A stretch of DNA of 64,000 bases from Psammoneis japonica (taxonomy: Eukaryota). The translations under genes and the position numbers were made by a program. The stretch is taken from contig QPGO01000207.1 of the NCBI GenBank assembly GCA_008632985.1, positions 1 to 64,000 on the forward strand. Direction: 5' to 3'. The notes beneath the pieces were generated by a model. That model was not told the DNA's origin, searched no databases, and saw only the letters and a list, made by a program, of their open reading frames with translations. Below are positions 6,125 to 64,000 of the stretch, piece after piece (within the stretch, counting starts at the first letter, position 1; each line of letters begins with the position of its first letter).

Positions 6125-6183
6125 ATTGTTTGACATGTTATCGGGATTCTATGGTATGTATTGAATTGAAACTCAGTGTAATC

Positions 6184-11724: not shown

Positions 11725-12252
11725 ATTTTTGGGAGTTTTCTTCTCTTCTTTGGTGCCTTTAGAAGTGGCCTGCCAAAGCTTCTGTCTTTGACCTCCTCTT
11801 CTGACACTTTTGCTGGCTTGATGTTGTCTGTTGACTCACAAACCTCTGATGTCATTGCAAAGAAGTGCACCTTGTTGGCTTGCCAAACTGTTTCTTTTGC
11901 AATGGCCTCTTGGAGACTGCAGCTCACATTTGATGGCCTGCCCTGGCACCCTGGCTGCTCCTCATCTGCTTGTGCTGGCTTCATCTGCTGACTGCAATGA
12001 GCTCCTGCATTCAACTTTTTTTGGAGTTTTTTTCTCCTTTGGTGCCCTCAGAAGTGCACAAGCTTCTGTCTTTGATGTCCTCTTCTGACACTTCTGCTGG
12101 CTTGATGTCGTCTGTGGACTCACAAACTTCAGATGTCCTTGTAAAATGAATCTTGCTCTCTTGCCAACAAGTTTCTTTTGCAATGCTCCCATGGAAACTG
12201 CAGGTCACATTTTGATGGCTTGCCCTGATGCCCTCATCATCTGCTTGCACTC
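11725..12252. repeat. Diverged direct duplication, period ~290 bp
   Basis: TTTGGTGCC...AAGCTTCTGTCTTTGA...TCTTCTGACAC...GACTCACAAAC...GTTTCTTTTGCAATG...CATCTGCTTG occurs twice. Confidence 0.8.
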
Positions 12253-15200: not shown

Positions 15201-16599
15201 CAGAGAGCTTGTGCTGCCAATCTTGTGGGAGCTGAGTGCCAGCATGTCAAGGCATGTTTTTGTGCCTTTCTGCTGGGTGTCCAACAACAGCTGCAAAACC
15301 AAACATTGAGATGATGGGATCATTTGCAAGCCACAGGTGCCCATCTTAGGGCACTCCAGCATGGAAAGTGAGTTTCATCACAGCACCATTGCTTTTGTGC
15401 TCTCTTTGTTTCTTTTTACAAAGGAAACTCCTCAATCTTTGGTCATGGACCTTTTGGGTTTGTGTTTTACAAGAAGTGCTTCAAAATGCTTTGCAAGTTC
15501 CCCCCTCTTTGATGTCTCCCTTGCTGAGTTTCATCTTGTCTTGTTTCTTGTCTTTTCTCCCGTGTTGCTTGTCTTCAGGATTGTGCACTTTTTTTCAAAG
15601 GAGCTTGCACTTGACTGCTGGTGCTGTTGGGCACACCTCTCAACCTGGCTGCTCTCTCCAGCAATGCTGCAGAATGCACGGCAACCTTTTCAATGTCATT
15701 TTCAAGTTCATTGCCAAGCCTTGTCACCAAGGCTTTTTAGTTTCCTTTGTTTGTGCAATGCACGGCATTTACTTTTTCCTTTCTCAAGGTTTTTTGCAGC
15801 TGGCTTTTGCTGGCATGCCACTTGGCACATGCAGAGTGGAGAGCACAAAATTAAATTTCACATGCAAGTTTGTCACTTGTGAGTGCAAAGTTTTCACCTT
15901 CTTGTCACTTGCCTTTTTCCTCTGGCTGCAACCAAGGCCCAAAAGAAGCTGCTCAACTGAACTTTCAAATGTTGGCTCTTTGTTCTTTGAATTGTCACCA
16001 TGGCAATCAGCTGCACTTGACATGAGCTCTTTGGACAGGGTTGTCTGTCTGGACATGCTTCATTTTGTGCTCTTCTTTTTTCTTTTTCTGAGCTCAAGTT
16101 TGGCTGGCTGGGCTTTGTCACAAAGCTTTTTTGCCTCCCTGGACATCAAAACAAGATCCTTCAGACTGGCTCTTGAAAACTTCAATTCTTTCATTTTCTG
16201 AACTGTCAAGTGTTTCTGCATGGTTGCAGGCAGCAACCCTCCATCTGCCATTTGATCACATGTGAGCACTCTGCATGCCTTTCCACAGTGGTGTGAGTTC
16301 ATCATTTGCCATTTCAATCTCAATCTCCAGAGCTTCCAATTGCCTCCTGCAGGCTCTCACCTCTTTTCTGTCAAGTCTTTTGCACATCAGTTTGTCCATT
16401 GTGTGCAAATGCTTGAGCACATCTCATGTTGATGCAATCCCAGATCAGATTTTCTGCAGCTCCTTTTGCTTTTGCACACCAGAAAGCCCATTTAAAAGAA
16501 ACAAGGGCTTTTGCACCATGAGAGCAAGACATGGGACTCCAGCTGAGCCACTGCCCTGCAGATGTGTGTTCACAAATTTCAGTGTGGAGGTCACTCCTG

Positions 16600-18045
16600 C
16601 AACACACGGAGTTAGATTCTCTGTCAGGCCCTGAGCATCCTGTGACAATCTTGGCCATTGCACAGAGTTGCCTGCTGAACCTCTGATGACATCAATGAAC
16701 CTTGTTCATGCAAGCATTTCAGCACCCCTCCTCAGCATTTTTAATGCAGTTGAGGGCCCCCCATTGACTGCAACCATCACAAAATCATTGCATGCCTCAC
16801 AAAATTCATTTTGTTTTGTGCCAAAGCTTTGCATGTGTGGGGCATGGCACTGTTTCCACCTGCACAAAAGACACAGCACTGGCAAAACCTCCATCATCAC
16901 TGCACTGTGCACAGCTGCAGATGTCTTGCATTGTGTGCGTTTTGATGCTGCACACTTCTTGAGCATTGCCATTGTGAACAAGTGAGCACTCTGTCAACTG
17001 CAATGGTGACAAAGCCACCACTGCAATGACTGACATGTTTTTTTCACTCAGCCCTTGTTCATCACAAAGTGGTGCCTGGCACTGGCTCTGCATCATGCAC
17101 CCTCAGCAGCACATGCACCAGCAGAATTTCTAGCTGCAGTTGTCACTCTGCATTGAACCAACCATTTTTGTGTGGATTGGAGATCCATCCTCCCCTGGCA
17201 GGTCCCCTGACTGATTTCTTGTTGGACCAGGTCCAAACATGCAGTGTCACAGAATGCAAAATGCACACATCAAACAAAATTGTGGGCAGCAGTGCTGAGC
17301 ACATCAAACGAAGACAGAGGCTCTTCTTTGTGAAGCCACTTGCCTTCCTTTGAGAGCAGTGCTTGCCTGAGCACCTGCCTTTTTGGGATGCATGGGCTCA
17401 GCTGTGGCATTGTGAGCTTGAGCTTTTCAAGGTGTGGAAGTTGTTTCTCCATGCTGGATGTTGCCACAACCCCTTTCCAGAGTTTTTGATGGATTGTGCA
17501 AAACTTGAAGCCACGCACCGTGTCACATCCTGTGCCACATGTCCGCCAGAGAGAGTGCAGATGTCATGCACATGCCACCATCAGTTGGTTTGGGCAATCA
17601 AGCCTCCCACTTTTTCCACAACTGGCAACAGTCAAGGAAAGTGAGGCTCACATCCAAACCCTCCTCCCAGCAAGTTCAAGATGATTTTCCATTGGGTCCA
17701 TTTTCCCAGGTGACAGCATGAGCCTGTCAGCTTTTCAACAACACTTTGAGCCAGCCACACTTGTCTGATGCAGCCACAAGTCTTTTCCAAGGTTGACCTG
17801 ATGTAATTTCGAGTGGGGAGGGTTCATGCTGGATGATTCAACTCAAGCCATCATTTGAAGACCAAACAGTGGGGAGAGCGACGAGCCCGGTGCGTGAATG
17901 CATGTCTTACATCCACGCTACGAGTGAATGACCAACAAGCAAAAAACGACTCTGCTTTATGACATTGCTCATTTGTCAACTCGAATCCGCATTCAGCAAC
18001 GGTTTCTGGAAAGCATTTGGTGATAAGATCAGGTGGTATCTTCAT
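16600..18045 (-). pseudogene. Possible hAT-like transposase remnant
   Basis: AESFFACWSF...FK*WLELNHPA*TLPTRNYI resembles the F..P.Y.LP.R N-terminal hAT region. An SDN-like motif lies near 17140. Heavily decayed. Confidence 0.35.
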
Positions 18046-42062: not shown

Positions 42063-42426
42063 CTTGCTTGAAAAGACGAAATAACCCTACTTTATGTGAA
42101 AAGTTAAAATAATGAAATGAACAGTGACTTTATTCTTGGGGTGTTGAAATACTGTAGGTCCACTAACGGGCAAGCTAGTCTTATCCGATGACGTCGCGGT
42201 CCTGTTTGATTTGTGCCGTCCATGGGCAAGGTCACGACAAATGTCACGGAGGCAAAGGCGTCATTATCCGGAATAGTGTTATTAGTTGCCACGGCTAGGA
42301 GTGAAAAAGCCCGTCCTGATTGGAGAGTATACACGTGAGAGCATACCATAGCCAGATCATCTGGTGGCAGACACGGCCGTGTGTGATTTCGTGCGCCTGT
42401 AATGAGTGCTTCAAACTGATGTTCAC

Positions 42427-42660
42427 AGTCACGACTCAACGTCATTCTGGTCGCATCTCACGACTACAACCCAGACTCAGATTTTCTCTTCGAAATAATC
42501 AGCTCATCACAAAATTGATTCAAACAGAAGCAACGACATTCGTCATAATTTTTAGACAACGACTTTGAACAAGCGTCTGTTTACCTCTGTTGCTGTTCAT
42601 GTTGCTGCCAACCTCCGAGGTCTTGTCCATCCCACCCAGCTGTAGGACTGCATCTCGACT
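42427..42660 (+). repeat. 5' LTR (234 bp)
   Basis: Direct repeat of 48568-48802. Ends AGTC...GACT. Confidence 0.95.
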
Positions 42661-42822
42661 GGTCACAGAGACCAATTTGCGCATTGACGAGAGCTCCTGA
42701 CCGAGTCATCATCACGGACGCTTTCGGTTTTTGATTTTGAAGCAAACCCGGGAAATGGCTGAGTCTCTCTCGCTTCTCTCGTCTTCACTCCAACAAGAGC
42801 CTCTCACACTGCACTCTCTGTC

Positions 42823-45800
42823 ATGGCTGCCATCGATCCGGCTGTTCTGGCGAAGGCGTTTGCCGACGCAATGGCCGCCAACGCCACGGCGACCGCTCCT
42901 ACGGCTCCAACCAAGCCGTCACGTGGTGGAATTCACCCAACCCACGGGGTTTACATTGGTGGTTCCAAACTCAACAACGTGAAGGACGGGGAGTGGCCTG
43001 CATTGGTTGCCAAGCCACCCGAGAGCAATCTTTCGACTGCGGATGACCCTGGGAAGACGAAGCACTGTTGTGGTTGCGGTCTCGAGGGGTGCGCCAAGAA
43101 GACATGCCCGAAGTGCAATGCCAAACCGCTGCGCGACGATCCTCCTCCCAATCCGCCGCCTGCAGACGACCCTTCCAAGAAGAAGAGGCGACCCATCGCT
43201 GCCTGGCGTGCTAAATTTGACGGAGAAACGAAGAAGGACAAGAATGGCAAGGAATGGAAGTGGTGTGCCACGTGCACGGCGAAGGGTGCCGACAAACCTG
43301 GAATCTGCCAGAAGCACTCTACCGCGGACCATGCCGACGACCACAGGCGCCCTCCCAAGGAGACCCCAGCCGGGAATTTGTCTTCCGTTGCTGATCCGGA
43401 TGGTGGCGTGCCCATGGGTCCGCCCGCTCAGACTGCCAAGGAACCAGAGGGAGACGAATCCGACCCCAACGAGTTGGTTTTCACGGGAATGTGGTGCGCG
43501 GCTGCGGATGCCGTCACCGACCCGGATTTCTGTTCCGCCCCTGTTGCTGCTGCAATTGTTGTTGCTCCGGCTTCTTCGGCCGAGAGGGAGAGCGATGCAG
43601 TCGTCAGTGCTGAGGTGGTTTGCAACGAAACGAGCCCACCTCTGCTCACCTCAGTCGTGGATCCAGTCGTGTCTCCCATCGTGGTTGAGACTGTCACTCC
43701 CGAAGACGCCGATGACTTCTGCGAATGCTCCGACGCTTTCTCCACCTTTGAAAACGAACCACCGGCTGTTGAGTTGTTTCCAGCCTCGAAGCTGTGCTCT
43801 GTCAAGCATCCAGATGAGTTCTTTGACGCTCCCGCACATTTGACGGACATGCTGTCAGATGACACAAAGTTGGATCTCATCCTTGAACACGACGTACACT
43901 TTGAAGACGCATGCCACGACTTGCCTCCGTGTGCCACGTATCGTGGCTTCGATTTCTGCGATCCAGAGGTCCTGGACACGGATGATTGTCACGAGGACGT
44001 CGAAGACGAGCCCACTTCGCGTCGCTCACTCTTGGGACGAGTCAAGCTGTTCACATTCTGGCTCGCCGCCATGTTTTGGGAAACGGTGCTGCATCTTTGC
44101 TTTGCTCCGATCCCATGCATCCCTCGAGCTCTACGCCGCCAGCGCAACCTCCCAACTTTGCACGGGTTTCCAGCCTCCTGGATGGTCCCATCCGTTGCAG
44201 TGATGGTGTGGTCAGCAGTTTACGCCGGTCAACAGCCCGAGCATCCATTCTCAAACGTGCCAAGTCGTTTTTCGACCGCTGGCTCTCAAGTCTACCACAT
44301 TGTGGAAGAGCTAGATGACCGGATGGTGTTGGATGCGGGGTCACTGTTCGAACATCACAGGATCAAAGGCACGCAAGTGCTCACCGAGTTTGTCGCGCGC
44401 CATCCGTCACACGCACTGAGCACTCGTCTCAAGGCCCACTGGGAGAGCTTGGAAGTCGCTGAACGGTCTGATGCGATGGACGAATCAGCCTTCTTTGACA
44501 CCCATGAGGAACTAGAACCTCTCGACGACCAGAAATATTTCTTCGACGCTCTTGAGGACTTCAGCCCGGATTTCTTCCGGTTTGACGAGCTCTGTCTGCC
44601 GAATCATGTCGTGGACACTGCCCATTTTCAAGATCCTGTGGAACTGTTGGAGGAAGCAAGTGTTAGACCAGTCGTCTACAATGCCTCCACCATCCAACTG
44701 CTCACCGGACAATCTCAAGCCGACCTCCTTGCATCCGATCCGCAGGCACTCATCGGTCTGTCGGACGAGGCTCTCACGGTCGTCATGGACACTGGTGCCA
44801 CGTTAGCCATCACCCCCGACAAAGATGATTTTACGGGGCCCATGACTGTTCCCAAGAAACCCTTACAGATCAATGGGATTGCCAACGGTCTTACCATCCA
44901 GGGTGCCGGTCCGGTTGCATGGGTGTTCACAACGCCAAGTGGCGCTGCCATCCAACTGAACACCATGGCATGCTACGTTCCTGGAGCCCGTCAGCGCCTG
45001 CTGTCGCCTCAACGCCTCTTCAACGAAGAGAAGGGGGTGCGTGGGAAGTGTGAGGGCGATGAAACCACTTTCCGTTTACATGTTGACGGGACAGGCAAGT
45101 TGGTCGTGCCATGTCATCCATCAAGCCACTTGCCTGTTGCGTCGATGACCAAGGGCGCATCTGCCGCTCCTCAAGTGAATCTACAGATCCTCAACGAGGA
45201 GAATCAAAACCTCACGGCAGGCCAAAAGCTTCTTCTCGAAATGCACGCCCGTTTTGGCCATTTGAACTTTGGTCGCATCCAAGCACTTCTCCGCGCAGTT
45301 CCGTTCCTGTCGAACCGTTTCAAGTCCGCAGCGAAGTGTGACCACCCAAGATGCGAGGCATGCGAATGTGCCAAAGGTCATGGACGCTCCCTTGGATCTA
45401 CTCACAAGTCGACAGTCCCTGAACGCGACGGGGCCCTTCGTGCTGACCATCTTCAACTGGGTCAGGCTGTCAGCGTTGATCATTTTGAGTCCCGCCTTTT
45501 AGGCCGCACCTTCAACTCATGTGGCAAAGCCACGTCCAAGCAATTCAAGGGCAGTTGCATCTTTGTCGACCACGCCTCTGGCCATGTCCAGGTCAAGCAC
45601 CAACTAGGTTTCTCCGCTGTTGAGACGATGCGAGCGAAGCAAGCGTTTGAGAAACATGCTTTGGACCACGGCGTCATCGTCCAAGAATTTCTTGCCGACA
45701 GTGGCGCTTTCAAGGCCAACGCTTTTGCACAACACATGCGAGAACATGAACAACGTCTCCGTTTTTGTGGAACCAACACCCATCATCAGAACGGCGTCAC

Positions 45801-48660
45801 AGAGCGGGGCATCCGCAGCATCTCCAACATGGCGAGAGCGATGTTGCTTCATGCATCAATCCACTGGAAGGGGGGAATTGACAGCTCCCCATGGCCCATG
45901 GCAGTTTCTCATGCCACGCATGTCTACAATGTCACCCCAAATTCCAAGGGACATTGCCCAGCGGACATTTTCACTGGTTCGACAGTGCCAAGACATCGGT
46001 TGCGCGACATTCACACATGGGGATGTCCGGCGTACGTGCTTGATCCGACCCTCGCTTCCGGCAAGAAACTCCCGCGTTGGGAGCCTCGCACTCGTCGCGC
46101 TTTGTTCGTGGGACTCAGTGCCATCCATTCCAGTGAGGTTCCTTTGGTCCTCAATCTTCAAACTGGAAGTGTCACTCCTCAGCATCATGTGGTCTTTGAC
46201 GATCTCTTCACTGCCGCACCATCAATCGAGAGGGAGACGGATCCACCCGATCACTGGGAACACTTGTGCCTCAACCAATCGACATGCATCCCTCTGGAGA
46301 AGGATCAAGCAGTTCGTTTGCACGATGAGTGGCTTGCCCCTCCAGAGCATCAACGTAAAGAGCGAGAACTGGCCAGAGCAACACGTGTTCGCGGCCATTT
46401 TGAGCCCACTCCATCAATTGCTGTGCCGGATTCACCCACTTCTCGCGACGACGTTGCCGATCGAGTCGCACCTGCGACTCAGCATCCAACGCCACCAGTC
46501 CCACCTGCGACTCAAACTCCCACAGACTCTATGGACTCTGCGCCAATTCAGCCACCTGAACCTCAAGACAGCAACGAACTTCCGCCACCCGAAGCGCCGA
46601 CGGAACCAACAGCTCCTCCCCCAGTCGAGACACCTCCTGTGACGAATCCAGAGGGAGTGCCAGGGCTGCGACGGTCTTCACGGTCAACCAAGGGACAGCT
46701 CAACTCTGCCAAGTTTGTGGATGAGGTCCACTTCAGCTCCGTCGAGGAAATGCCACTGCCGATCGGACACGAGGCTCAGCCAGCGCATCTGGCAACTCTC
46801 GAGACGGATTTGGACAGTGGTGCCATCAATGTCGGCAATCCACGAGCCTGCGCAGCTAGTGAGAAAACCAAGGACCCTGATGTGCCTTCGTCACACAATG
46901 CTCTGAAAGGTCCGGACGCCGACGAATGGATTGAGGCAATGAAAATTGAAGTCAACGCACTCACACATCGTCGAGCCTGGAAAGCAGTCGAGCGTCAGCC
47001 GCACGTGAGTGCACTTCCAGGTGCATGGGCACTGAAACTCAAGAGACTCCCAGATGGAACCCCTCTCAAGCACAAGGCCCGACACTGCGTCCGCGGTGAT
47101 TTGCAGAAAGAAGGAGTCGACCACTTCGAAACCTGCGCGCCGGTTGTGCAATGGTCCAGCATCCGACTCATGCTCACTGCGGTGTTAAAGGAGGGATGGA
47201 CTGCACGTCAGGTGGACCACACCACAGCCTTTTGCCAAGCTGATGTTGCCGAGGAAGTTCACACAACACCGCCGAAGGGATTTGCGCCAAGGTCGGGACT
47301 CAACATGGTTCTCAAACTTTTGAAAGGACTGCACGGCCTAAAACAGTCTCCCAAAGGCTTCTGTGAGAAGTTACGAGCTGGTTTAACCGAGCATGGATGG
47401 GTGCCTTCAGCCTCAAATCCCTGTTTGCACTTCAAAGAGGGCATGATGTGTGTGGTGCACGTCGACGACACCGTTTTTGCTGGAGCTTCAGCTGAAGCTC
47501 TAGAAGCCGAAATTCGCAAGTTAGGAGTCTCCGACGACGAACATCGCCACGCATTTGAACTTAGAGATGAAGGAGAAGTCGGCAACTTTCTCGACATCAA
47601 GATCGAAAAGCTCTCTGAGGGTCGATTTCTGCTCACTCAACCCGGTCTAATTGACAAGGTCCTGCACACCGCACAGATGCAGGACTGCAATGGAGCATCT
47701 GCTCCAGCTCTGCCTGCGGCTGTTGGTGCCGACACGGACGGCCCACCTTTTGATGAACCCTGCGATTGTCGCTCAGTTGTTGGAATGTTGATGCACTTGG
47801 CAGCGAACAGCCGGCCAGACATTGCATGTGCCACACACCAAGCAGCTCAATTCTCGTTTGCACCCCGAGCGTCCCACGCTGCTGCAGTGAAGCGGATGCT
47901 CCGACACCTCAAAGCAACTGCTGCTGAAGGTCTCATTCTCAAGCCTGCGCAAGATCATCGAGTTGATTGTCACGTCGATTCTGACTTCGCGGGGTCATTT
48001 GGTGTGGAAGATGGTCAAGACCCAGTTTCTGTCAAGTCCAGGACTGGACACCTCATCTGCTGCGCCGGCTGCCCGCTTGTCTGGGTGTCCAAGCTGCAGA
48101 CTCTTGTGGCATTGTCGACTGTGGAAGCGGAATGTGTCGCACTTTCTCAAGCCATGCGCGATCTCATCCCCATTCGTGAAGTTCTCAAGGAGCTCAACCA
48201 CCACGCACTCGGAAAGTCTGACCGCCAAAACCCTGCCACGACTCACTCCAAGGCTTTTGAGCTCGTAACCCAAGGCACCGATGACTCGCCTGCAGCACAG
48301 AATGTCCTGCCTGTGTCCGTTGTGCACAAAGATGACTCTGCGTGCCTCAAGTTCGCACGCATGCCCAAGTTGTCTCCGCGAACCAAACACATCGGTGTCC
48401 CGTGCCACTGGTTTAGGACCAAAGTCAAACAATTGGAGATCGACATCCAACCTGTCAGTGCTCTAGAGCAACTGGCCGATCAGTTCACGAAGGGACTGCG
48501 GACCGATGCGTTCCGTGCGGCTGGAAAGGCTCTTGTGGGCTGGTCAGCTCTCTCGGTTGAGAGGGAGAGTCACGACTCAACGTCATTCTGGTCGCATCTC
48601 ACGACTGCAACCCAGACTCAGATTTTCTCTTCGAAAATGATTGGCTCATCACAAAATTGA
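42823..48660 (+). pseudogene. Copia gag-pol: frame open but conserved residues mutated
   Basis: Zn knuckles, protease MDTGA, HARFGH...CEAC, integrase SVD/ADSG/HQNGVTER, RT HVDD (for YVDD) and LHGLKQSP (for LYGLKQ), RNase H HVDSDFAG and EAEC. Confidence 0.92.
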
Positions 48661-48802
48661 TTCAAACAGAAGCAACGACATTCATCATGATTTTTAGACA
48701 ACGACTTTGAACAAGCGTCTGTTTGCCTCTGTTGCTGTTCACATTGCTGCCAACCTCCGAGGTCTCATCCATCCCACCCAGCTGCAGGACTGTGTCTCGA
48801 CT
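48568..48802 (+). repeat. 3' LTR (235 bp)
   Basis: Follows the polypurine tract and is followed by TSD TTCAC. Confidence 0.95.
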
Positions 48803-51584
48803 TTCACAACCCAGGCAAACATTCTTTTCCGGTGCTGATAAATAAACTGAGGGTCTCATTCGCTGACTCTGTCTAGCACATGTGCTAGAAAGGAAACGAG
48901 CACTTACATTTCAGTGAATGTTTTCTCTTGCTGGCTGAGGAGAGATGCGCAGACAAGTCGTTCGACTCACCTCACTCTGGGCAATGTATCCAACCGGTGT
49001 AAACACTGGCACTTTGAATCAACCAGGGTGCAGCAGCGCTGGATATGCCGCCGTAGAATTGCTTCTCACGTTCGTCGTCGAGAAAGGTCGAGATCTGATG
49101 TAACAACACGTTCGTCAGCCATGCGTGGTCGACTCACGACGTGGTGTACTACGTCAAATTCAGAAAGAAAAGGAGCAGCGCTGCTGCATAGACTTTGGTT
49201 TCGCTCGAACCGACATCTTTGTGAGAGCTGAATCTGACATTTCAATGGCACGAGTAGCAGTTACGATAGATCTATGGGGGGGGGGGGGGGGGAATATAAA
49301 CGGAGTGAATCGCATTCGTTGGTGCATAAAATCAAACAGGCTGAGCAGGAAGGTAACTGTACGTGGTCTCAACATGCAGCGCATTCTGTGGCAGTGGCAA
49401 TGCGCTGATTCAGCATTGGCCTGGCAACCGATCGCACGCCGCCAACACCCTTGTTACTTGTTACGGTACGCACCTTGAGATTGTACTACGTTTCGAGCTA
49501 CCATAGCCCGCCATCGTTGGATGCATAAGCAAGTAGAGCAGAACACTGTTGAACGTTGGCAACGAATGAATGAATCTCAACACGAACGAGCCAGAGACTT
49601 GTCCGAAACGCAGGAACGATTCCCAGGTAATCAAATCTTCCATTCGAAAGAAGAAGCGCTTTCAGCATGTCCCTATATCCACCGTCTGGAGTTTGAGAGT
49701 CAGCAGATAAGCCAAGAAGACATGCTCCTTTTGATTGTCTCATTATACTCTTTCCGTTGCACTTGTGTTCAACATCGTGTAGCATTTGCATCCTCTGGTA
49801 AGTGCTTGTTTCATTAATGTGTCACAATGTCGATTGGTTCGGGGTTTTTGTTTGGAAATTGTCACTCTGGTTTGCAATGGGGCAAACTCATTGAGACCCC
49901 TATAAGCAGCCGTGCAGTCTTGGGAGAAGTGATTCGCATATTTCAGCTAACATGGCAATGCCCCGTTTTCTACATCTGTGGCTGCCGTCCGTAAATGTCT
50001 CTTCATCACCAATCCTTATCTTTCACATATCGTGATAAAATAATAATCTAAGCTTCGACTTCATACCACTTGCTGGTCTCATGTACAACAACACAGAGGC
50101 CGTCACCATTCCTCGAAGCAAAACCTCGTCCTTGCATGCCCGCGTTTGATAGTAAACGATAGCTCCAAGGAAGGTTATCCTCGATTTCGCCAATCGAACC
50201 AGTATTTTTGGATCTACTACGCTCTATTGATAACAGCAAATCGACATTGCATCAAGTCAAGCGCATCACGTGATAGTCTCCATTTCCAACTAGTCAAGCC
50301 TCCAAACATGTCTGCTCCATAGTCAGCCACAAGCATGCGGACAACTCGCAGGGATGCCTTTTCTCCTTCGGTTCTTAAGGGAAGCACAGGGGGAGTGAAT
50401 AGCAATTAGTTCTCTGTCCTTGAACCCCAGATTGTTCTACACTACACATGTCATTCACCTGCATGCCTTCAGCTTTCTTTCAAAACATGTTCGCTCCACC
50501 TATGGACAGGATGCGAAGGTGAAATGGAGCCCCTAGCGGTTGTTCTGATGGTAATTTTGAAATTGTAGCAAAGTCTTGACAGTGCTACAGGTGTTCTGTA
50601 AACTAGATAGTCCCAATGCACCATCCAGAGACCACACTAGTTAAGTATTTGAAAGAAGCTCAAGCGTCGCACAAGGTCCAAACGGCAACGTGCTGATCAG
50701 TCGGTAAGGACGTCGTTTCGAGCACCAGAATATTTTTCTTTAAACCTTGAAAGCAGCTGCTAGCGAGAATTGGGTCACGCTTAGCACCCAAAACGTTGAA
50801 CCTCTAGGATGTTTGATGTATCCTTCAGGGCTTGGCTTCCATGCGTTTGCCTTGAGTTCCGTCTTCTCGTCAGTCGTGGTGGTGAACATCCCAATATCGA
50901 TCGGATATGAATCATCAGCTGCACCAAAGGCATACCGTAGGAGTGTTAGTTGCGAACTGGATGTCGGTTGGTTAGGCCATTGTCAGTTGGTGGTGGTTGG
51001 GTTCCTGCAGTTGATGACAGGGGACATTGTTAGGAAACTTTTGTGGAGGGAGAATTTGCGATACAAGTTATGTAGACTTCTACGCGTTTTGAAAATTTGC
51101 CTGCGATGATGGGCGGACTGCAATTTTTGACGCTCCGTTCGTTCGACACATCATACATCATCGGCGCACAATGCTTCTCAATAGTTGCGAGTTGGGAGAT
51201 AGAGTCTGTCGCCATGGCACTCTTGTCAATAGAAAAGATTCTTTTGTGTCTACACGATCATGTTTTGGTAACCATCAAGTCTGCAACAGAGTTTTCTGTC
51301 ACTTCTGGTGAATGAAACTGAAGCGAAATTCGTGCTCGCTGCCTTTGCCATTTGCGTGTTGACATTTATTTTGTACGGCCATCAGCAGGCCGCCCATCAA
51401 GTCATCACCAGAATGAGACGAAAAACCGAGAATTGCATTGTTCGGATTATGGTGTGCACAGCTTTCCCGTTGTGCTTTTTCGATATTCCTTTCTTGTCTC
51501 CAGCGCTCTCGATGAAGCGCAAAACGGAATTACGCTCGTGGTTTCACTCAGAGAATGTGATCGACATGCTTTTGTCAATCCATT

Positions 51585-54615: not shown

Positions 54616-57600
54616 TGATCGAAAAACATGGATTCTCTGAGATTTTGTTTGTGTCGTGACCGTTGCTAAATTTCTCAATCACTATCATTTTTGTGTAGCT
54701 TGGTAGAATTAATACCATGTGTTCGTGTGTAGAACATTCGTGGGACTTGGTACTTTCAAAATTATTACTAATTCCTACGTACACTTTACGGCAACCGCAG
54801 ACGCGTGCAAAAAGAAAAACACTGCCAAGAGGTGTGGCGCCTCTCTCAGGGAGGCGCCATGCATGATGCATGTTCACAAACTGGCCAGCCAACGAATCTC
54901 CCCCATGGGCGGCAGCCCATCGGGCTCTCACAGCAAAGAGGCTCTTGGTGCCAGACAAAAATCAGCAGGCATCAAAGGAGGAGGCATTTGTGCGATGCAT
55001 GTGCTCTGGGAAAGGGAGCAGCACAAGTTCAAAGACGACTGCACTTTTCTGTTTTCCCATCAATGCACCCAATGGATTCAATGATGAGATGAGTGGCAGG
55101 AGGGCCTTGACGTTGCTCACGACATGAGACATGCTTGGCCATTTTTTACTGCTTTCAATTGTTGCAATCATTGGGCCATTCCAGTTGTCCCCAGCCACTT
55201 TGGCGCAAGGTGGCCTTCTTGCTCAGTCAGCAACAGGGAAGGTGTTGATGCCCAAGTTGATCCGCTGGGGTTGGCTGCATGACACTGCAGCAGCCACATG
55301 GACTGGGGTTTCTTCTGCAACCAGCTCAAGACATGAGTGCTCATTTCCCCAAAATGCCCACTCACCTCCTTGGTGCGCTGATGACTCAGCAGCAGCGCGG
55401 GAAAATTTCAAGCAAGCAGCTCAGAAGTTCTTTCTTGCTCTGCACAACATCAGACCCAAGCAAAGTTGTCATCCTGTTGACAACTCCAAGAACATTCCAG
55501 TTGTTCCAGAGCACAATCTGGGGCAAAAAGCCAGGTGTGGTGGTTGATGTTGGTGCTCCAGAAGTGGGGCGCAACATCACATCAACCCAAGATGCCAGAA
55601 CAGGTTCTGGCGGATCATGAGCAAAAGAGATGCAAGCATCTCAAGCCTTGTCTTCACCAATGATGTCACTTCACACCATTTGTCACATCATGTGATTGGC
55701 TGCTTGGCAAGGAAGCCAAGGCAATGCTCTGCATGATTGCTGTGCAAAGCTTGTGGACAACTTGCAAAAGCCTCGCTCAGAAGTTTGTGACTTCATGAAT
55801 TGTGCAAGAACAAGCATCACTGTGCAGCTGGATTTGGTCATCAATGCCCCAGGGGGGCATGCACGCCATCTTCACAAATTGGCTCCAGACATCCTCAGTG
55901 GGAAAGATGGCACTGGTTTGTTCCTTTGCAGCAGCACCAAGAAACACCGAGCAATCTTCAGTGCCACATGCCAAGACAATGTGCTGACCCCCCATTTCAC
56001 AAGATGCTGCCAAAACCACTCTTCAAGATGACCATCTTGCTGACCAAAAATGGCATGACCAACACTGCTGCACTGGATGCCACTGAGTGACACGTCCAAG
56101 AAATGTTGTTCATGCAAACTGGTGCATGACACTGGAACTCCCTTCTGTTGCAAGCATGCCCTGTGGGATTGTCAGAAAGGATGTTTGACTGCAGATCACA
56201 ACTTGAAGCATTGCCTGCATGCAGGCCAGTCATGCTGGATTTTGAAGCAGCAGTGCCAGACACACAGAAAAAAAAGAGCAACATCTGAAGGCTTGGAATC
56301 AAAAATCAGTTTTTGTTTCTTGCCCACAGTGTGACAGCAAGACAAACTTCATGATGCTCACCTGGTTGCCACATTGCTGTTTAAGATGCTGCTGAGCTTC
56401 ATGTGCTGACCTCAAGCTTCTGTGCACAAGCACCTTGCCAATGTGCATGTTCATGACTGCTGTGAGCACTCCACAGCAGACTGGTGGCATCTTTTGCAGC
56501 ACCTCCAAATTGACTCTGGCTGGGCCAACTCCAGTTCTTGCACAAGACACTTTCTCTTCCATTGCAGGTGCAACAATGGCAAGAGCACATCATCATCTGA
56601 TGGCCACAATGAAGACCTTGCTGAAGGTGCAAAAGCACACACATGCCAGCTGATGGAAAGCTGCACATGCGCCAAGCACAAAATTTTTGGCATGTTTGTG
56701 CTTTGCCCCCCTCAGCAGACTGCAGCAACATGCTCAAAGGACTCGTGTGTGCACCAACATTGTTGCTGAGAGAATCTGATGTTTTGTCATCTGTCATGCA
56801 CCAAGGTGCACATTGCAAGAGCAGCAATTGAGGCAGCAGCACATCAGTGCTCACACAACACACAAGCCTGCATGGTGTGCCAGCTGATGAAAAAATGACA
56901 AATGCCAAACACACGAAACATGTGGTGCACTTGTGCTTTGCCCTCTGCTGGCAAACTGCAGCAATGTGCTGAATGGACTCCTCATGTGTGCTGTGTGCAC
57001 ACCTGCATTGCAGATGAGAGAATCTGATGTTCAAGGTGTGGCAGCAGCATTTCAGTGCTCTGATGCATTTGATGCCATGGCAGCAGTGGATTCAGGGGCC
57101 CCTGTTTCAGAATTTTGATGAGGGCATGGCTGCCAACTTTGATGAATTTGTGCAATTTTTGACCAACACCTTAGAGCCAGTGTCCTTTGCCAGGGCAGTC
57201 TTGACACTGCTGCTGCTGCCAGAATCACCTGTGCTGCAAGCTTGTCATTGCCCAGTGTTGTCTGGGGACTGGTCAGATGACATTGAGGAACTTGGGGAAA
57301 TTGAGGCTGTTTGCCTGCTCTCCTGGCAACACATTGGATGACACTCAAGAAGCGGAGCTCAAGCACCCATGGGGGGGGGGGGGGGCACTGTCTGGTCCAT
57401 TGAGTGGAAACAGAGATGGCAGTTGGCCTCCACACAACATCACTGCATGCTTGGCAGAGCAAACTCAATGCTGCTGGCAATGATGGCAAACAAAGAAGCA
57501 GAGTGCAGTGGGCCCAACACCTTGCCTTGATGCTGTCAAACCTCCCCACCAGTGACTGTGAAAGAGGCTTGCTGCTGATCATCAAGGTGGCTGTTGCCTC

Positions 57601-58322
57601 TCAGCTCTTGACCCTTGGCCTGTTCAGTGCAGGGTGAGGGCTGTTTTGTGTGTGTGCCACAAACAAAGTCTGCCCAGCCATGTTTGGTGTGGCAGGGAGT
57701 GGCAACATTTTGGAACAAGGCCACAACACAGGAAATGAAAAGCACAAAGGCAGCATGAGAATGCATGGCAGCACAGCATCTTGTTTTGGAAGCTGGGGGC
57801 AAGTTTGCAAGAGCTTTCAATTAAAAACAAACTGCAAAAGCTGCCAAGGTTTGAGCAGATGGTCTGTGCAAAAAATGCCAATGCACCCAATGGTGTGCAG
57901 CAATGTGCCCTGGACACTCTGTCTGTTGCTGCCATCACAATTTTGTTGGCATTTGACAGAACAGCAGCCACACTGCTGAGAACTGCCAGAGACACAGGGG
58001 AGCGTGAGGAGTTGTGCTGTTGACATGCTGAGTTGTTGCAAAAAGCAGCAACAAAGGGCTCCTTCAAAGGCAATGTGTTGGACTTTGGGCATGGCATTTT
58101 GTCACGAATGGCACATTGACTCAACTCCAGCACTCACTTCTCAATCTGTGCCATGTCATTTTTCCTGTTCTTGGTGCTGCTTGCATTTTGCAAGCTGGGG
58201 TAAAAACATCATCTCCTCCCTTCAATTTTGCTGCTGCTGCTGCTGCTGCTGCTGAGAGAGATGCCAAAGCTGCTCTGCTGCAGCTCAGGCTTCTTTTGCA
58301 TTTGTGCCACAAGAAGTTGTTG

Positions 58323-58992
58323 TCATCTGGCAGGGGATCTTCCCAAGCTTCTGAGACCCTCTGATCTCTGCTCTTGGCAAAAGAGCAGTGCCCCATTTGC
58401 AGGCCTCTTTTTGCAAGAGCTCAAAAGAAGCTGTGCACCACACCAAAAACCCTCTCCCTAATGTGTGGAGCCAGCAGCCTCATTGACAAAAATGGCCCTC
58501 CCCAAAAACAGACACAGCAGCAAAATGCTGGCACACAAGTGGGCTGTCTTGTTCCTCTTTTGCCAAGCCACTGTTGTTCCTGTCAAGATGCACCTCTCCT
58601 CTTGACCATGATGCAATCTGTTGATTCTGAGTTGGTCCACACTTTATTTTGGTTGTGACTTTGGCCATGATCATCTGGCAGAGGATGATCTTCTTGAGCT
58701 TCTAAAACCCTCTGATCTGCTCTTGGCAAAAGAGCAGTGCCCCATTTGCAGCTTTTTTTTGCAAGAGCTCAAAAGAAGCTGTGCACCACACCAAAAGCCC
58801 TCTCCTTCATGCATGGAGCCAACAGCCAGCAGCATCACTGTTGAAAATGACCCTTCCCAATGACAGACAGTGGCAAAATGCTGGCACACAAGTGAGCTGT
58901 CTTGCCCCTTTTTTGCCAAAGAGCTGGTGTTGTTCTCTCATCAAGATGTGCCTCTCTTGACCATGATGCACTCTGTTGATTCTAAGTTGATT
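58323..58992. repeat. Tandem duplication, period ~348 bp
   Basis: TCATCTGGCAG...CTCTTGGCAAAAGAGCAGTGCCCCATTTGCAG...GAGCTCAAAAGAAGCTGTGCACCACACCAAAA at 58323 and 58671. Confidence 0.9.
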
Positions 58993-59684
58993 TGCATCAT
59001 TTTGTTTGCAACTTTGCAAAGATGATGATTTTGAGCTCAAGTGCTCATGCTGGTTTGCAAGGCACCAACTGGTCCATGATTGAGAGGGTGGAAAAACCAC
59101 AATGCAGTCCAAACAGCAGAGACAGCAGTCCACACAACATTGCTGTGTGCTGCTTGGCAGAGAGAATTTGATGCTCGCGATGATGGCAAACAAAGAAAAC
59201 TGCAGCAGCGCTCCACCCAACACCTTTTGTTGATGCTGTCTCAAATCTCCCACAAGTGGGCACAAAAGAGGCTTGCTGCCAACCAAGGTTGCTGCTCTGC
59301 TGCTCAGCTCTTGACTGCTGGCCTGCTCAGTGTGTGTGCTGCTGCACAAACAAAGTCTTCCTGCTCATCATGTTTGGCAAGGCAGCGCAGGTCAGAGTGT
59401 GGCAACACTTGGGCAAGGCTGTGACACAGAAAGAGAAAAGTGCAGCTGGCATGAGGAGAACATGTGCAGCAGTGCAGCATGTTGCTTTGATTGAAAGCTG
59501 CCGGAAGTCAGTGTGCAGTGGCTGCTTGAACAAGAGCTGCAAAAAGCCATGCGCCAAGGCTGTTTGAGAAGATGGCTGTTGCAAAAAATGCTGGCATGCC
59601 CAATGCTGCACAGCAATGTGTGCTGGACACTCCATCTTTTGCTGTCATCATTTTCTTGGCATTTGCAAGAGCAAGGGGCCCACA

Positions 59685-61200
59685 CCAAACATTGTCAATT
59701 GAAGGAAGAGTTTTCGATGCAATCATGGTTGACAATGTGCTTTTCAGAAAACACATTGTGCGCATCTCTCTGACTCTTCCAGCAAGCAAGATGCCACCAC
59801 CACCCACGCTCACTTGGAAAAGTTTGTCATCTGGTTAAAATCCCACAACCTGTGTCAGGCGTGGCTTGTGATTTGGGATCACACCAATGGTTGTGCCAAA
59901 CAGTGCTGATGTGCTTTGGCGCTGCACTTGTTGTCTGTGTTTGCGCACAAATGCAAAACATTGTGTTTGACCATGCCATTGGAGCACCTGGACATGGCAA
60001 AGGAGAGGTTGATGGCATTGGAGCCTGCATTAAATCACTCATGCATTGAGAAATGCAGTCCACAACTGTTGCAGGAGTCAATGACAAGGATGGGAAAATT
60101 GGACCTGAAGCTTTGGTCATGGATGACAATGGCATTGCAGTCACACACAGTCATGCCAAGGAATGTTGCAAATTGCTCATAAAGAAAAAGAGTGCTCTTG
60201 GTGCAGTTGGCAACAGGCGAGGAAACATGCCAAGAGGGAATCCCTTCAAAAGTCAACAGAAAGGGTGCATTGTCTGCAGGAAGCTGATGGAGTTCTTGGC
60301 TCTTTAATCAAAGTCAAGTTGACTGGATTGGTGCAAGTGCACACGCGCCATTGTGGCATCAGAGCCTTGCACCATTTCCGATTTGAACCTCTTTTCCCCA
60401 TTGGTTGGGTTGCCATGCAAAGAATTCCTTGTGCTTGTGAAGCCTGCCTGGATGAGCTCAAATGGCCTTGGGTGAAAAATGTCAAGCCAACAGAGCAGCC
60501 AGAACATGCAGGTGGCAACCGAGCTTGCAAACTGTGGCCCATCTTTGAGGGGCTGAACAATTGGCAAGTGTGTCAGGTGATTCAAACAGATGAGAGTGAC
60601 GCCAACGAGGTGCAGCTGGTTGACAAATCTGTGTTGGACTTCCTGACTGAGGAAATGGCCAAGGAAATTGTTCTAAACAGCCATGCTGCATTGTCTTGTG
60701 AATCTGAGGAGGGCTTTTGCATGCTGCAATGGGATGAACTCCCCCACAAAGCACAGGAGGATGAGGTGTGGACAGAGTTTGACCCACCCACAACTGTTGA
60801 GGCCGGTGAATGGGTTTGCAAGGGGGAACATGTCTCAACCCTGTTCCAAGGGCCAGAGGAATGTGAGACAAGAGTGTTGCTCAAGCAAGTTGCAATTGCC
60901 AACATTGAGCTCAATGAACCCTCAGCCACTCTGGAACTGCCAAGTGCATGCAACAGGAATGAGGCTTCACTTCTTGATCCACGTCATTTGAGTGATGACG
61001 AGCATGAAGGAATTCTGGATGCCATCTGACAGCGGGAGGCAATGGATTGTTTTGAGGACTGTTTGGACGAGGAGGAGGAACACAACAGCAGCAAAACTGA
61101 TGAGTGGGAGGGAGAGAATGACAACAAGGAGGACACTGCAGAGGATGATGAGAGTGCGGCAGGGGACAGTGACAGTGATGAGTCGGATGAACAAAATGGC
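59685..61200 (+). pseudogene. DDD-type transposase remnant (Sola2-like motifs)
   Basis: LSIEG, HLSDSSSKQDATTTHAH, WDHTNGCAKQC*C (for TDGCAKQYRC), GAPGHGKGEVDGIG, RIPCAC..C, acidic tail. Superfamily assigned from remembered motifs only. Confidence 0.7.
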
Positions 61201-61369
61201 AATGGGAAAATGAATGAACACTGTGATTGTCACTTTGCATGGTGTGACCAGATTAACTGCCCAACACAAAAGCTTTCCTTTTTCCATGCAACTGCTGCTG
61301 CACCACCCCTGGAAGTTCAAACTGGTGCAACATGAACACTTGTTGCAGATGCTTTTTTGCCACATGTTG

Positions 61370-63450
61370 CACCTCATGTTCCTTGTTCCCAATTCACCAA
61401 TTCAAGCACTTGACGTCCTTTGCTGGCAATGCAAAAGGGTGGTTGGAATCAAAGATCCAACCATGGTGCAAGGCAATGCAGTGGTTGTTCACAAGATGGC
61501 ACAAAGTTATGAAGCCATCATTGCAGGTCATCACATCAAATTCACCACCCGCTTCCAAGGAAATTGTTTGATCCACACTGCCGCAAAACCCAATGTTTGA
61601 GTTTGCAGGTGGGAATTTTCCCTTCAAATGACCACCCAACATGTGCTTTGCAAACAACATGCACTTGTTGTCAGTGTTGGCACAGTTGGCAGATGTTTGA
61701 ATGTGAGAATCAATGCAGTCTCTCATTTCCATGTCGCCAGCACAATCAAGAACACTGGCCAGGGACAGACAAAAAAATGCAAGTGTCGTTTTGTCCTTGC
61801 AGGAATTTCACAGGTGGGCCGCTCGTCGGCAAGTTGCTGTTCAATGGCATCAATGCATTTCCTTCCGGCAAGGAGCAAAAACCATCCAATGGCTTCAGTG
61901 CTTTTAAATCATTCCACACATCTGGAAACCGAAACTTGAAATTGCACTCAGCCCAATCTGGGGTTGCACACATGGGACAGTTCCCCTCCAAGCTGCAGCC
62001 AATGAAATCAGCACCCCACCCAACAGGTGGAAGTTTTTGAATCTCCGCTTCAGTCAATCTCTTCAGTTTGGCAATCTGTGGTGGGTTGCAAATTGATTGC
62101 ACCTTGTTCTTAATCTTGTTCCTGCATTTTCGATTGAGTTGCATGGGAACGTTTGGTTTGTGTTTGGCACGTGCGATGAGGGCCACACACACATGTCCAT
62201 GGGATGGCCGTTCATTTCATTGTGTTGCACATCAAACCATTTTTCCCACAACATGACACCCTTGTTTTTTTCTTGAAAGCAACCAAACAAGTGAGGAACA
62301 ACTCCTTTGGAATCACCAGGATGCTGATGCCTGCTGTTCCATGAACTTGGATCAACCCAAGTGAGTTTTTTAACCCGCAACATCACTTGAGCGTCTTTGC
62401 ACTCACAATCAAGTTGATCCCTTTCTTCTTGGTGTTGCTGCTCTTTGCTCAACCAACACCATGAAGTGGCTCCTTTTGCCTTTGGTTTTGGCCCAGAGCT
62501 GTGAAGGCCAATGAGATCCTCATCCTTGCTCACTCCAGTTGTGTCTTTCTTCATGAGCTTCACATCATGTCTGTGACATGCATCTCCCACTCTCTCCCTC
62601 TTCTCTGCCTTTGTGTCTCCAAGTGCTGAGTCTTCTGCACCCTTGGCTTTGTCAACTTCTTCCTGGTCACCATCTTCCTCCTCGTCCTCAGTTGATTCAG
62701 CCATGGCCCCACCTTGACCTTGCTCCTCCTGGATTTTGTCTCACACACCATCATCTTCCTCCTTTTCCTCAGTTGATTCATCCATGGCCCCACCTTGATC
62801 TTGCTCCTCCTGGTTTTGTCTCACAGTTGCAACCTTGCAGTGGCAGCCTCGGCCTTTTGCAGGTCATCCATCACTTCAGTGCCCTCCTTCCCCTCTTCCT
62901 TTTCCTCCCCCAACTCTGCCTTCATCCTTGCATCACAGACACTGGCATGATCCATGCAACGATGGCAATGAATCCTTCTGCAAAACTTGTGCCATGCAAG
63001 TCCTGGAGCTGCCTTGCACCAGTCAGCAAGGTGAGCAAGCAGCTCTTTGCAGCAGCCCTTCCTGCTTGGTCTGGCGGGGAAGTGAACTTCAAAGATGTGT
63101 TTGTCTTCGGTGACGGCCTCCACTGACTCAGAGCATTGTTGCAGCTTGAAGTCTTTGTCTTCACTGCCAGAGGGAATCCGCAACATGTGGTTGCACCACC
63201 AACCTGCAACAATGTCAAACAATGCCTCTGATGGCAGTGTCTCACCAGGGTTGCATGGTCCAAATGAGAAAACCTTCCGGCAGCCAATCATGCAACTTGT
63301 GGGCACTTTGCATTTTACGTCGGTGGGAAGTTTGGCAATGCAGGGATCTTCCTCCATGTCATCGTCCAACTGTTCAAGCTTCTCCTTTTTGCAATGCTTG
63401 TTGTGAAAAACACAATCATCACTGTTGTCCACGTTGCCCTTCTTCAACTT
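61370..63450 (-). pseudogene. Decayed transposon accessory gene with a putative papain-fold peptidase C-terminus
   Basis: FLQGQNDTCIFLS ... NHCIAL...WIFDSN give Q/C/H/D in papain-fold order. Upstream acidic/basic region contains an 81-bp in-frame repeat. Confidence 0.45.
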
Positions 63451-64000
63451 CTCACAGCTGATTTGCTCTTGACGGAAAAGCTGCCCCCTTGTGAAACCTT
63501 TTCTTTTTGCAAAAGCTCAAAAGAAGTGACACAGCACACATGCCAGAGCCCTCCAACTCCATTGCACGTGTGTGGTGTGAGCCTGCAGCCCCTCATTTTG
63601 GCAAAAACAGCCTCTCAACCACAGGCAGTGGCAAAACCACCAGTGCACAAGTGGAGCAAGTGCCTTGTTTTTTTCGGTTGCCAAAACCACTCTTTTCACA
63701 TCAAGAAAATGCATCTCTCAACCAACAAAGTTTCAATGCGGTTTTGATTCCGAGTGGATCTGCGTCATTTTGGTCGTGCACTTTGCGAAGATGACGGGTG
63801 AAGTTCCGAATGGCATTTGGGAAGTTGAAGGTTAGACAGAAAGTTGTCGTGTCGTCAGTGTGTTTGCTGACATGTCAGAAAGGCCCATCACCTAATTCTT
63901 GATGACGTGTCTCAATTTTTTGAGACACTCGATCAACGTCAGAACGGTTGACGAATCTGCAGTGCGCATTTTTTGATGACTGGCTGGCGGAAAGCGAGTT

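Follow-up and report, generated by a model that had tools for sequence, protein, structure and literature searches.

Integrated NCLDV and virophage DNA in the chlorarachniophyte alga Bigelowiella natans (Rhizaria) is the target of mutation at TpA dinucleotides (Mettrop et al., bioRxiv 10.64898/2026.01.13.699255). The preprint describes mutation-accumulation lines whose two integrated viral regions acquired 231 de novo mutations; 230 of these were A>G/T>C changes, each at a TpA, with a mutation rate about 1000 times baseline. It also reports that the process was seen de novo in cultured lines, was active in only some of them, and that TpA-poor CDS were enriched in reverse-transcriptase and DDE domains (10.64898/2026.01.13.699255). 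We analyzed 64,000 nucleotides of a contig from the diatom Psammoneis japonica (hereafter, the window), and consider it likely that a single Ty1/copia insertion within it has undergone post-integration, locally targeted hypermutation at TpA. Like the B. natans process, this one produces almost only A>G/T>C changes at TpA, the strand deciding between TpG and CpA, hits integrated DNA, is confined to particular foreign regions, and leaves TpA-poor, CpA- and TpG-rich sequence. The two differ in host, here a diatom (Stramenopila), in target, here a multi-copy copia retrotransposon rather than a single-copy giant-virus insert, and in evidence, which here is historical (an LTR pair and polarization against homologues) rather than de novo. 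The available text of the preprint contains 0 mentions of CpG, LTR, retrotransposon or copia, whereas two blocks in our window have also lost CpG. Because the signature matches that of B. natans, we regard the locus as adding a host lineage and a class of target to a known phenomenon rather than as a new kind, and we infer that the process is the one measured de novo in that alga. Our literature searches found no report of a TpA-loss signature in diatoms, and the accessible parts of PMC2806351, 10.1101/2025.10.24.684338 and PMC6604790 hold no TpA result.

Other known systems share single features with this locus. Fungal RIP, in the part of its description consulted (PMC2621366), likewise makes transitions only, is dinucleotide-specific and aimed at repeats, has sharp borders and ruins coding sequence. 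However, RIP converts C:G to T:A, mainly CpA to TpA, raising TpA and lowering GC, whereas this element has lost TpA and is richer in GC than its surroundings (54–55% versus 46–48%). The element's TA observed/expected ratio of 0.15 and the TA to TG/CA polarity speak against RIP. Deamination of 5-methylcytosine at CpG also turns a self-complementary YpR step into TpG or CpA on either strand of silenced repeats, but it hits the other base pair, and CpG in the element is almost intact (0.88, versus 0.15 for TA). APOBEC3 and ADAR act before integration on one strand and therefore leave strand-biased, clustered changes common to both LTRs. They too cause deaminase-type transition hypermutation of retroelements, and the 5' U favored by ADAR corresponds to the TA context; the changes here, in contrast, are discordant between LTRs, fall on both strands and are unclustered. 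Very-short-patch repair in E. coli depletes CTAG by a net T-to-C change within the TA step, giving CCAG or CTGG. It resembles our case in that net change, but it is bacterial, genome-wide and tied to a longer methylase site, rather than local to foreign DNA.

The element has the following parts, all on the forward strand:

42422..42426, + strand: left target-site duplication TTCAC, identical to 48803–48807
42427..42660, + strand: 5' LTR, 234 nt, with AGTC...GACT ends and 6 TA left
42660..42674, + strand: primer-binding-site-like stretch (by sequence), starting with TGG, directly 3' of the LTR
42823..48660, + strand: open gag-pol frame P0001, 1945 aa, with domain order gag_pre-integrase, integrase SH3, RVT_2
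48559..48567, + strand: polypurine tract GAGAGGGAG (by sequence), abutting the 3' LTR
48568..48802, + strand: 3' LTR, 235 nt, with 1 TA left
48803..48807, + strand: right target-site duplication TTCAC, matching the left copy

This region is one Ty1/copia-type (CoDi-like) LTR retrotransposon insertion. Pfam places RVT_2 at residues 1385–1630 of the frame (E 4e-31), with gag_pre-integrs (807–851) and SH3_retrovirus (1060–1127) both below cut-off; integrase upstream of RVT_2 is the copia order. Of the 321 homologues, those with names belong to the diatom Fragilaria crotonensis (55% identity), which agrees with a diatom host. The TGG-initiated stretch had no matched tRNA, there being no tRNA gene within the window, and elsewhere in the 64 kb we found no second element or LTR copy, no other LTR-like pair in plain or purine/pyrimidine coding, and no copia remnant (a tblastn search with 120 copia homologues placed none of its 166 HSPs outside the element). 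The family itself is abundant: summed depth of its contigs in the X1 short-read assembly is 3000–7000, against 60–120 in the flanks, and of the 2455 X1 family contigs 638 show a similarity of 99% or more, while 255 fall below 90%. We put the family at roughly 50 copies.

Aligning the LTRs (42427–42660 with 48568–48802) gave 235 columns, 220 of them identical, with 14 substitutions and 1 indel (93.6% alike); the 1-bp indel sits in an A run. All 14 substitutions in this one LTR pair, on which the spectrum rests, are transitions, and they fall at 10 dinucleotide sites: four TA/TG, one TA/CA, four TG/CA with both bases changed, and one CG/CA. The alignment reproduces the one 1-bp indel and 10 changed dinucleotides of the initial annotation and upholds its further statements that five sites have TA in the 5' LTR against TG or CA in the 3' LTR, that one is CG versus CA, and that no substitution lies outside these contexts (14 of 14 are in TA, TG, CA or CG steps). 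That TA is kept in the 5' LTR at all five one-sided sites (5 versus 0, p=0.06) is unexpected under a symmetric process. Coded as purine and pyrimidine, the LTRs are 99.6% alike, the indel being the sole difference, and just one of the 11 LTR CpGs has changed, in one LTR only. In 200,000 trials that dropped 14 random transitions on the 5' LTR, the fraction with every transition in a YpR step was 2.5e-5, the fraction with at least four adjacent pairs was 0.004, and 0 of 200,000 combined the two. Because there are zero substitutions outside TA/CG steps, the raw LTR divergence of 6% overstates the age of the element, as the annotation had argued. If the process is genome-wide, LTR-divergence dates would be badly inflated, as the 6% against 0 here illustrates.

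The shared 5-bp TTCAC duplication and the polypurine tract imply a single insertion, and the two LTRs are therefore sisters. The LTRs of one element are identical at insertion, reverse transcription copying both from one template, and the primer-binding site is re-copied from the tRNA primer in each cycle. Changes made before integration would be common to both LTRs because of that single template, and the LTR changes here are not, which places the mutation after integration, in DNA, as first proposed. Editing before integration, whether ADAR-like on RNA or through deaminase or reverse-transcriptase error on cDNA, had already been disfavored in the annotation, and we find it very unlikely: APOBEC and ADAR are known to target retroelements, and ADAR-type enzymes favor a 5' U (cited in the available text of 10.64898/2026.01.13.699255), but the changes are LTR-discordant, the strands are hit about equally (32:22) with no strand runs, and the primer-binding site, though renewed from the tRNA primer, differs among copies by CA/TG doublets (among the differences listed, CA-CA in the window copy versus TG-TG in two other contigs).

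A further possibility is that ectopic gene conversion imported the LTR differences, which would then record divergence between copies rather than local mutation. The family is abundant and its copies mutually divergent (2455 contigs), yet we consider this explanation improbable, since none of the LTR differences lies outside YpR steps and they are scattered over the whole LTR with no tract. Comparison of the window with the family contigs gave 312 differences, 253 transitions and 59 transversions (19%), against 0 transversions of 14 in the LTR pair, and donor copies would themselves still require TpA-specific mutation of DNA.

We then consider polarity. The four TG/CA sites had been attributed to opposite-strand hits on an ancestral TA or CG. 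The first ancestry fits, with expected values of 0.9/5.2/3.9 against 1/5/4 observed at a fitted decay probability of 0.75 per TA per LTR, and is favored over CG ancestry by a log-likelihood difference of 10.9; the second is rejected (exact p=0.0004), as it would require 10 CpGs to be intact, 1 to be changed on one side only and 4 to be hit twice. Under TA ancestry, loss of TA accounts for 13 of the 14 LTR substitutions. At the TA/TG site 42496–7/48638–9, a family contig of depth 513 reads C at 48638, which we took as CA, CG also being possible. This was the one site of the ten to appear among the 40 differences listed out of 324 between window and contigs, a listing that leaves out those within 30 letters of a contig end.

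Coding sequence gives the same direction. We compared the gag-pol frame with its homologues at BLASTP-anchored columns, counting as conserved those with one residue in >70% of at least 40 homologues. Of 23 conserved tyrosine columns the element retains 3, while 10 now carry His (CAY) and 7 carry Cys (TGY); for the other conserved columns together, retention is 444 of 520 (Fisher p=1.7e-13). Conserved His survives at 18 of 20 columns, Cys at all 13 and Arg at 35 of 39. The element has changed at 96 conserved columns. Single TA steps account for 41 of these (24 TA>TG and 17 TA>CA), and the rest comprise 10 CpG-type changes, 19 transversions, 19 multi-step changes and 7 transitions of other kinds, although hits inferred in this way are biased toward what protein comparison can detect. 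A>G coding changes had a 5' T in 24 cases and lacked it in 4, and tyrosine content is 0.46%, against 3.06% in homologues. Set beside B. natans, the element thus has 41 TA-type versus 7 other transitions in coding sequence and has lost about 75% of its LTR TA steps. Judged from these sequence comparisons, the polarity is TA to TG/CA and not the reverse.

These results also bear on cytosine deamination, by CpG decay, RIP-like CpA-to-TpA change or both, under which the TG/CA sites began as CG and TA in the 5' LTR is the derived state. Diatom transposons are CpG-methylated (in the part of PMC2806351 available), the LTRs contain one plain CG/CA site, and the old blocks described below also lack CG. 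Nevertheless, we find this reading hard to credit, given that TA is depleted in the element (0.15) while CG stands at 0.88, that conserved tyrosines were lost to His and Cys rather than gained while Arg was kept at 35 of 39 columns, and that CG ancestry of the four doublets is rejected at p=0.0004. TA loss has left the frame decayed although open: 17 conserved tyrosines are now His or Cys, including the one before VDD at residue 1546. Because TA>TG/CA cannot make a stop codon, all 1945 codons read through while the protein is ruined. If the process is genome-wide, an open frame would be no proof of an intact transposon, since such changes make no stops and remove TAA and TAG.

Both strands were hit, as originally claimed, with 32 TG and 22 CA outcomes (p=0.22). 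A test for strand coordination between neighboring hits found none: TG/CA states of neighbors agree in 0.44–0.53 of pairs at 2–10 bp spacing (0.50 expected), and a hand count over the 41 polarized coding sites gave 18 runs, where about 21 are expected. Hits that are strand-random and uncoupled between neighbors may point to machinery that recognizes a symmetric dinucleotide in double-stranded DNA, rather than a processive single-strand deaminase; heritable TpA modification or a duplex-acting adenine deaminase would be examples. Under the TpA hypermutation that we favor, the double-stranded DNA of the element would be targeted locally after integration and A:T pairs of TpA would become G:C, the outcome, TG or CA, being set by which strand's adenine is hit, with sites struck singly and the strand chosen at random. 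About three quarters of LTR TA steps and about 85% of conserved tyrosine codons have already been lost, CpG decay has barely begun, the LTRs have gathered no other type of substitution, and the process ends at the element's borders. The data show the spectrum and its polarity, that the changes came after integration and on both strands, and that they are confined to the element. The process is presumably enzymatic, with adenine deamination in DNA as the leading candidate and a mutagenic symmetric base modification at TpA as the alternative.

TA depletion halts at the LTR ends. TA observed/expected is 0.24 in the first and 0.10 in the last 500 bp of the element, and rises to 0.80 and 0.59 in the 500 bp just outside. 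Over the whole element TA (0.15) is the most depleted dinucleotide, with CG at 0.88, compared to background values of 0.57 and 0.99. Each of 150 background 250-bp windows has at least 2 TA (median 9), whereas counts in the 25 windows of the element range from 0 to 6. A genome-wide neutral bias against TpA, with no targeting and with genes keeping TA by selection only, would agree with the low background TA (0.57). We nonetheless think such a bias a highly improbable explanation, in view of these window counts, of the abrupt change within 250–500 bp at the LTR ends and block borders, and of the youth of the element: with no background substitution in its LTRs, it cannot out-deplete old neutral DNA under a uniform process.

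The window also contains two blocks of about 9 kb each, with border change within 250–500 bp:

8250..17750, no strand assigned: block nearly without TA (27) and CG (41), with 1098 TG and 1027 CA and sharp borders
55000..63750, no strand assigned: second block nearly without TA (20) and CG (80), with 1017 TG and 999 CA

The first block carries the same TA signature taken to completion, plus loss of CpG. CG loss in these two old blocks is probably due to deamination of 5-methylcytosine at CpG. Pfam found no family in eight long block frames, and of 103 further block frames of at least 90 aa all but one were without a family, the exception being a Conotoxin match that was below threshold and driven by Cys; purine/pyrimidine coding revealed no similarity between the two blocks. 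No homologue was found for the host ORF at 24248–26209. Diatoms may share with chlorarachniophytes a TpA-directed DNA-editing defense, here turned against LTR retrotransposons, as the first of two phases of erasure (TpA, later CpG); we offer this only tentatively, and think it somewhat less probable than its negation. The endpoint of two-phase erasure would be blocks with neither self-complementary YpR step. If true, a shared defense would either go far back within the SAR supergroup or have arisen more than once. A genome-wide process would mean that a major phytoplankton group has a mutational genome defense of polarity opposite to that of RIP, would broaden a phenomenon so far described in a single preprint on one unrelated alga, and would make TA/CG-free blocks a simple marker of old foreign DNA beyond the reach of similarity searches. 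LTR pairs offer a natural experiment in which the process can be measured without laboratory lines.

Lastly, assembly or base-calling error at modified TpA or mis-polishing of repeats could in principle mimic such a signature. Repeats are prone to chimeric consensus, and only 56% of sampled 31-mers of 41900–49300 were found in X1 contigs. X1 was the single sequencing run listed for this sequence, with no RNA run beside it. We regard artefact as extremely unlikely: family contigs likewise show transition-rich variation (253 of 312), the two blocks of about 9 kb show the completed signature, and the X1 contigs match the window with zero differences across both flank/LTR junctions, although this agreement carries no independent weight because X1 may be the sample behind the window assembly. 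As a control for the TpA reading, the flanks have 31 listed allelic differences, of which 13 are transversions, 7 non-YpR transitions, 5 CpG-type and 6 TA-type, with no doublet.

Global alignment of the two LTRs of the retrotransposon gave 235 columns, comprising 220 identities, 14 substitutions and 1 indel column within an A run, an exact match to the ten dinucleotide sites and one 1-bp indel that the initial annotation had listed.

Features discussed (forward-strand coordinates)
42427-48802: LTR retrotransposon
42427-42660: its 5′ LTR
48568-48802: its 3′ LTR
~8250-17750: block 1, TA 27, CG 41, sharp borders
~55000-63750: second block, TA 20, CG 80, sharp borders

All 14 substitutions were transitions confined to the ten dinucleotides, and in purine/pyrimidine coding the indel was the sole difference between the LTRs. 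When 14 random transitions were thrown onto the LTR in 200,000 trials, the proportion of trials with all 14 inside YpR steps was 2.5e-5, that with at least four adjacent pairs was 0.004, and 0/200,000 had both.

Differences between the LTRs
TA (5′ LTR) versus TG (3′ LTR): 4 sites
TA (5′ LTR) versus CA (3′ LTR): 1 site
TG versus CA, both bases changed: 4 sites
CG versus CA: 1 site

At one-sided sites, TA was retained in the 5′ LTR at all five (5 versus 0, p=0.06), and 6 TAs are left in the 5′ LTR versus 1 in the 3′ LTR; this excess may reflect chance or partial protection of the 5′ LTR.

The pentamer TTCAC lies on the outer side of both LTRs, the polypurine tract GAGAGGGAG adjoins the 3′ LTR and the 5′ LTR is directly followed by a stretch beginning with TGG, so the element represents one insertion and its LTRs are sisters. 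Because reverse transcription generates both LTRs from a single template, their differences arose in integrated DNA unless gene conversion imported them, which is unlikely given that transversions make up 59/312 (19%) of differences between the window and contigs from other element copies, yet the LTR pair has zero.

We then fitted the TG/CA sites with a decay model in which each LTR changes independently and pairs that decayed to one shared state are invisible. TA ancestry, with a fitted p of 0.75 per TA per LTR, predicts 0.9 intact, 5.2 one-sided and 3.9 discordant sites, compared to 1, 5 and 4 observed, and was favored over CG ancestry by 10.9 log-likelihood units. CG ancestry would imply that 10 CpGs stayed intact, 1 changed in one LTR and 4 changed in both, and was rejected (p=0.0004). 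Other copies lend fragmentary support to TA ancestry: among the matches listed, the site that is TA at 42496-7 and TG at 48638-9 reads CA in another copy, although a contig with a depth of 513 has C at 48638 with the following base not listed, so that CG is possible there. Also among the matches listed, 42660-42674, which follows the 5′ LTR, has CA-CA where two other family contigs have TG-TG. Every transposition renews this stretch from the tRNA primer, so these differences should be post-insertion too.

The two products of TpA change, which differ by the strand whose adenine was altered, numbered 32 TG and 22 CA (p=0.22), and at no spacing did neighboring TG/CA states depend on each other, whether in the element or in the two blocks. 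In contrast, APOBEC, ADAR and RIP leave strand runs, which the element's TG/CA states lack. Together, the LTR pair, the TA-ancestry fit and the 32:22 outcomes support the initial proposal of a post-integration DNA change at TpA on both strands.

To polarize coding changes, we used 120 homologous polyproteins as outgroups, calling a column conserved if it was covered by 40 or more homologues and 70% or more of them agreed. The element retains the consensus at 447/543 conserved columns and at only 3/23 conserved Tyr columns (Fisher test against all other conserved columns, p=1.7e-13), compared to 18/20 for His, 13/13 for Cys and 35/39 for Arg. The lost tyrosines are now His (CAY, 10), Cys (TGY, 7), Phe (2) and Trp (1), leaving a Tyr content of 0.46% versus 3.06% in homologues.

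Steps at changed conserved columns (n=96)
Single TA>TG steps: 24
Single TA>CA steps: 17
CpG-type steps: 10
Other transitions: 7
Transversions: 19
Multi-step changes: 19

Of the A>G changes in the coding part, 24 follow T and 4 follow another base. Residue 1546, directly before VDD, is His in the element and Tyr in 107/116 homologues; we take this Tyr-VDD to be the YxDD polymerase box. The Tyr loss and the polarized steps thus give the direction as TA to TG/CA, on both strands, with the protein ruined. The 75% TA loss in the LTRs, post-integration by definition, agrees with the loss of 17/20 Tyr codons (three Phe/Trp columns set aside), so coding decay need not be older than the insertion.

The 1945-codon frame between the LTRs is nevertheless open although 17 conserved tyrosines were lost to His or Cys, because no sense codon becomes TAA, TAG or TGA through A>G following T or T>C preceding A. 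By the genetic code these changes also eliminate TAA and TAG, and the element has 25 stop triplets per kb per strand versus 38 in background. Where TA-to-TG/CA change acts, open frames are therefore no sign of transposon intactness. The element also has many long off-frame and antisense open frames.

TA observed/expected
Whole element: 0.15
Element's first 500 bp: 0.24
Element's last 500 bp: 0.10
Left flank, adjoining 500 bp: 0.80
Right flank, adjoining 500 bp: 0.59
Background, 38 kb: 0.57

With CG at 0.88 in the element versus 0.99 in background, these values show that depletion is TA-specific and ends at the LTR ends. As a control we used the flank at 41000-42100, which is heterozygous or strain-variable in both sequencing runs (X1 and X2), with a single 1.6-kb contig of X2 showing 28 differences and 5 gaps, and whose spectrum is mixed and ordinary. 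The 31 unique-flank allelic differences listed comprise 13 transversions, 7 non-YpR transitions, 5 CpG-type and 6 TA-type changes. Surviving TAs in the element have a 5′ A (ATA, or TAT on the opposite strand) in 6/94 orientations versus 26% in background, with 5′ C and T over-represented (CTA and TTA persist), and those of the blocks are for the most part TTA, suggesting that recognition may extend beyond two bases.

The same signature is reported in one preprint, on mutation-accumulation lines of Bigelowiella natans, a chlorarachniophyte (Mettrop et al., 2026, 10.64898/2026.01.13.699255). In its accessible text, the mutation rate of two integrated viral regions is ~6e-7 per site per generation, or 1000 times baseline, with 230/231 mutations being A>G/T>C and all at TpA; hypermutation is limited to some lines, TpA-poor CDS are enriched for reverse-transcriptase and DDE domains, and an ADAT2-like adenine deaminase is the proposed enzyme. 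That text makes no mention of CpG, LTR, retrotransposon or copia, and is silent on CpG loss, whereas the blocks here are also nearly free of CG. We found no report of such a signature in diatoms in the literature searched, and the accessible text on Phaeodactylum mutation accumulation gives CG, CC and TG as mutable contexts and reports no TpA effect (PMC6604790). The element, a diatom retrotransposon rather than a viral region in a chlorarachniophyte, thus extends a known kind of process to both a new host lineage and a new class of target.

The data show the spectrum and polarity of a process that acts after integration on both strands, at independent sites and within the element's borders. 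Such a process would probably depend on an enzyme and target DNA that is silenced or foreign. The leading candidate would be an adenine deaminase acting on DNA, as the B. natans preprint proposes. Alternatively, TpA may carry a mutagenic symmetric modification, which would account equally well for strand-random hits and for erasure of CpG, the other self-complementary YpR step, in the older blocks. As a rough illustration using another organism's rates, a few tens of thousands of generations at the B. natans rate would be enough for 75% TA loss, and dating by the raw 6% LTR divergence, with a baseline of 3.5e-10, would put the figure in the tens of millions.

The element's frame encodes, in order, a gag-pre-integrase signal, an integrase SH3 domain and a copia-type RVT_2 domain. 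Its polyprotein has 321 homologues (best 58% identical), those named being from the diatom Fragilaria crotonensis, and the best named matches of the host mTERF gene (6184-8073) are likewise from diatoms: Asterionellopsis (65%), Attheya, Cyclostephanos and Amphora. These matches make the host a diatom. The accessible text of PMC2806351 describes a diatom group of copia elements, CoDi, which the element resembles. Short-read contigs from X1 reach a summed depth of 3000-7000 over the element versus 60-120 over the flanks, indicating a family of ~50 copies. Junction contigs from X1 agree with the window at zero differences; X1 is possibly the assembly's own sample, and hence not independent support for the sequence. 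The junction contigs (42110-42452 and 48771-49151) have depths of 69 and 56 versus 105-120 in neighboring unique flank, so possibly a single haplotype of the two carries the insertion, as would be expected of a recent event; among the matches listed, no contig represented the empty site.

Both blocks, ~9 kb each, contain 0-3 each of TA and CG per 250 bp and ~1000 each of TG and CA (1.6-2.2 times expectation). Differences among their internal repeats consist of TG/CA doublets plus ordinary substitutions. No Pfam family or copia remnant was found in either block, nor any similarity between the two. The blocks look like the end state of the element's TpA process plus CpG decay. Block 1 includes a degenerate tandem array with a unit of ~90 bp (10720-11420), whose pairs are 61-68% alike and 87% alike in purine/pyrimidine coding, and further tandem pairs lie at 9960-10486, 11681-12247 and 58315-59016.
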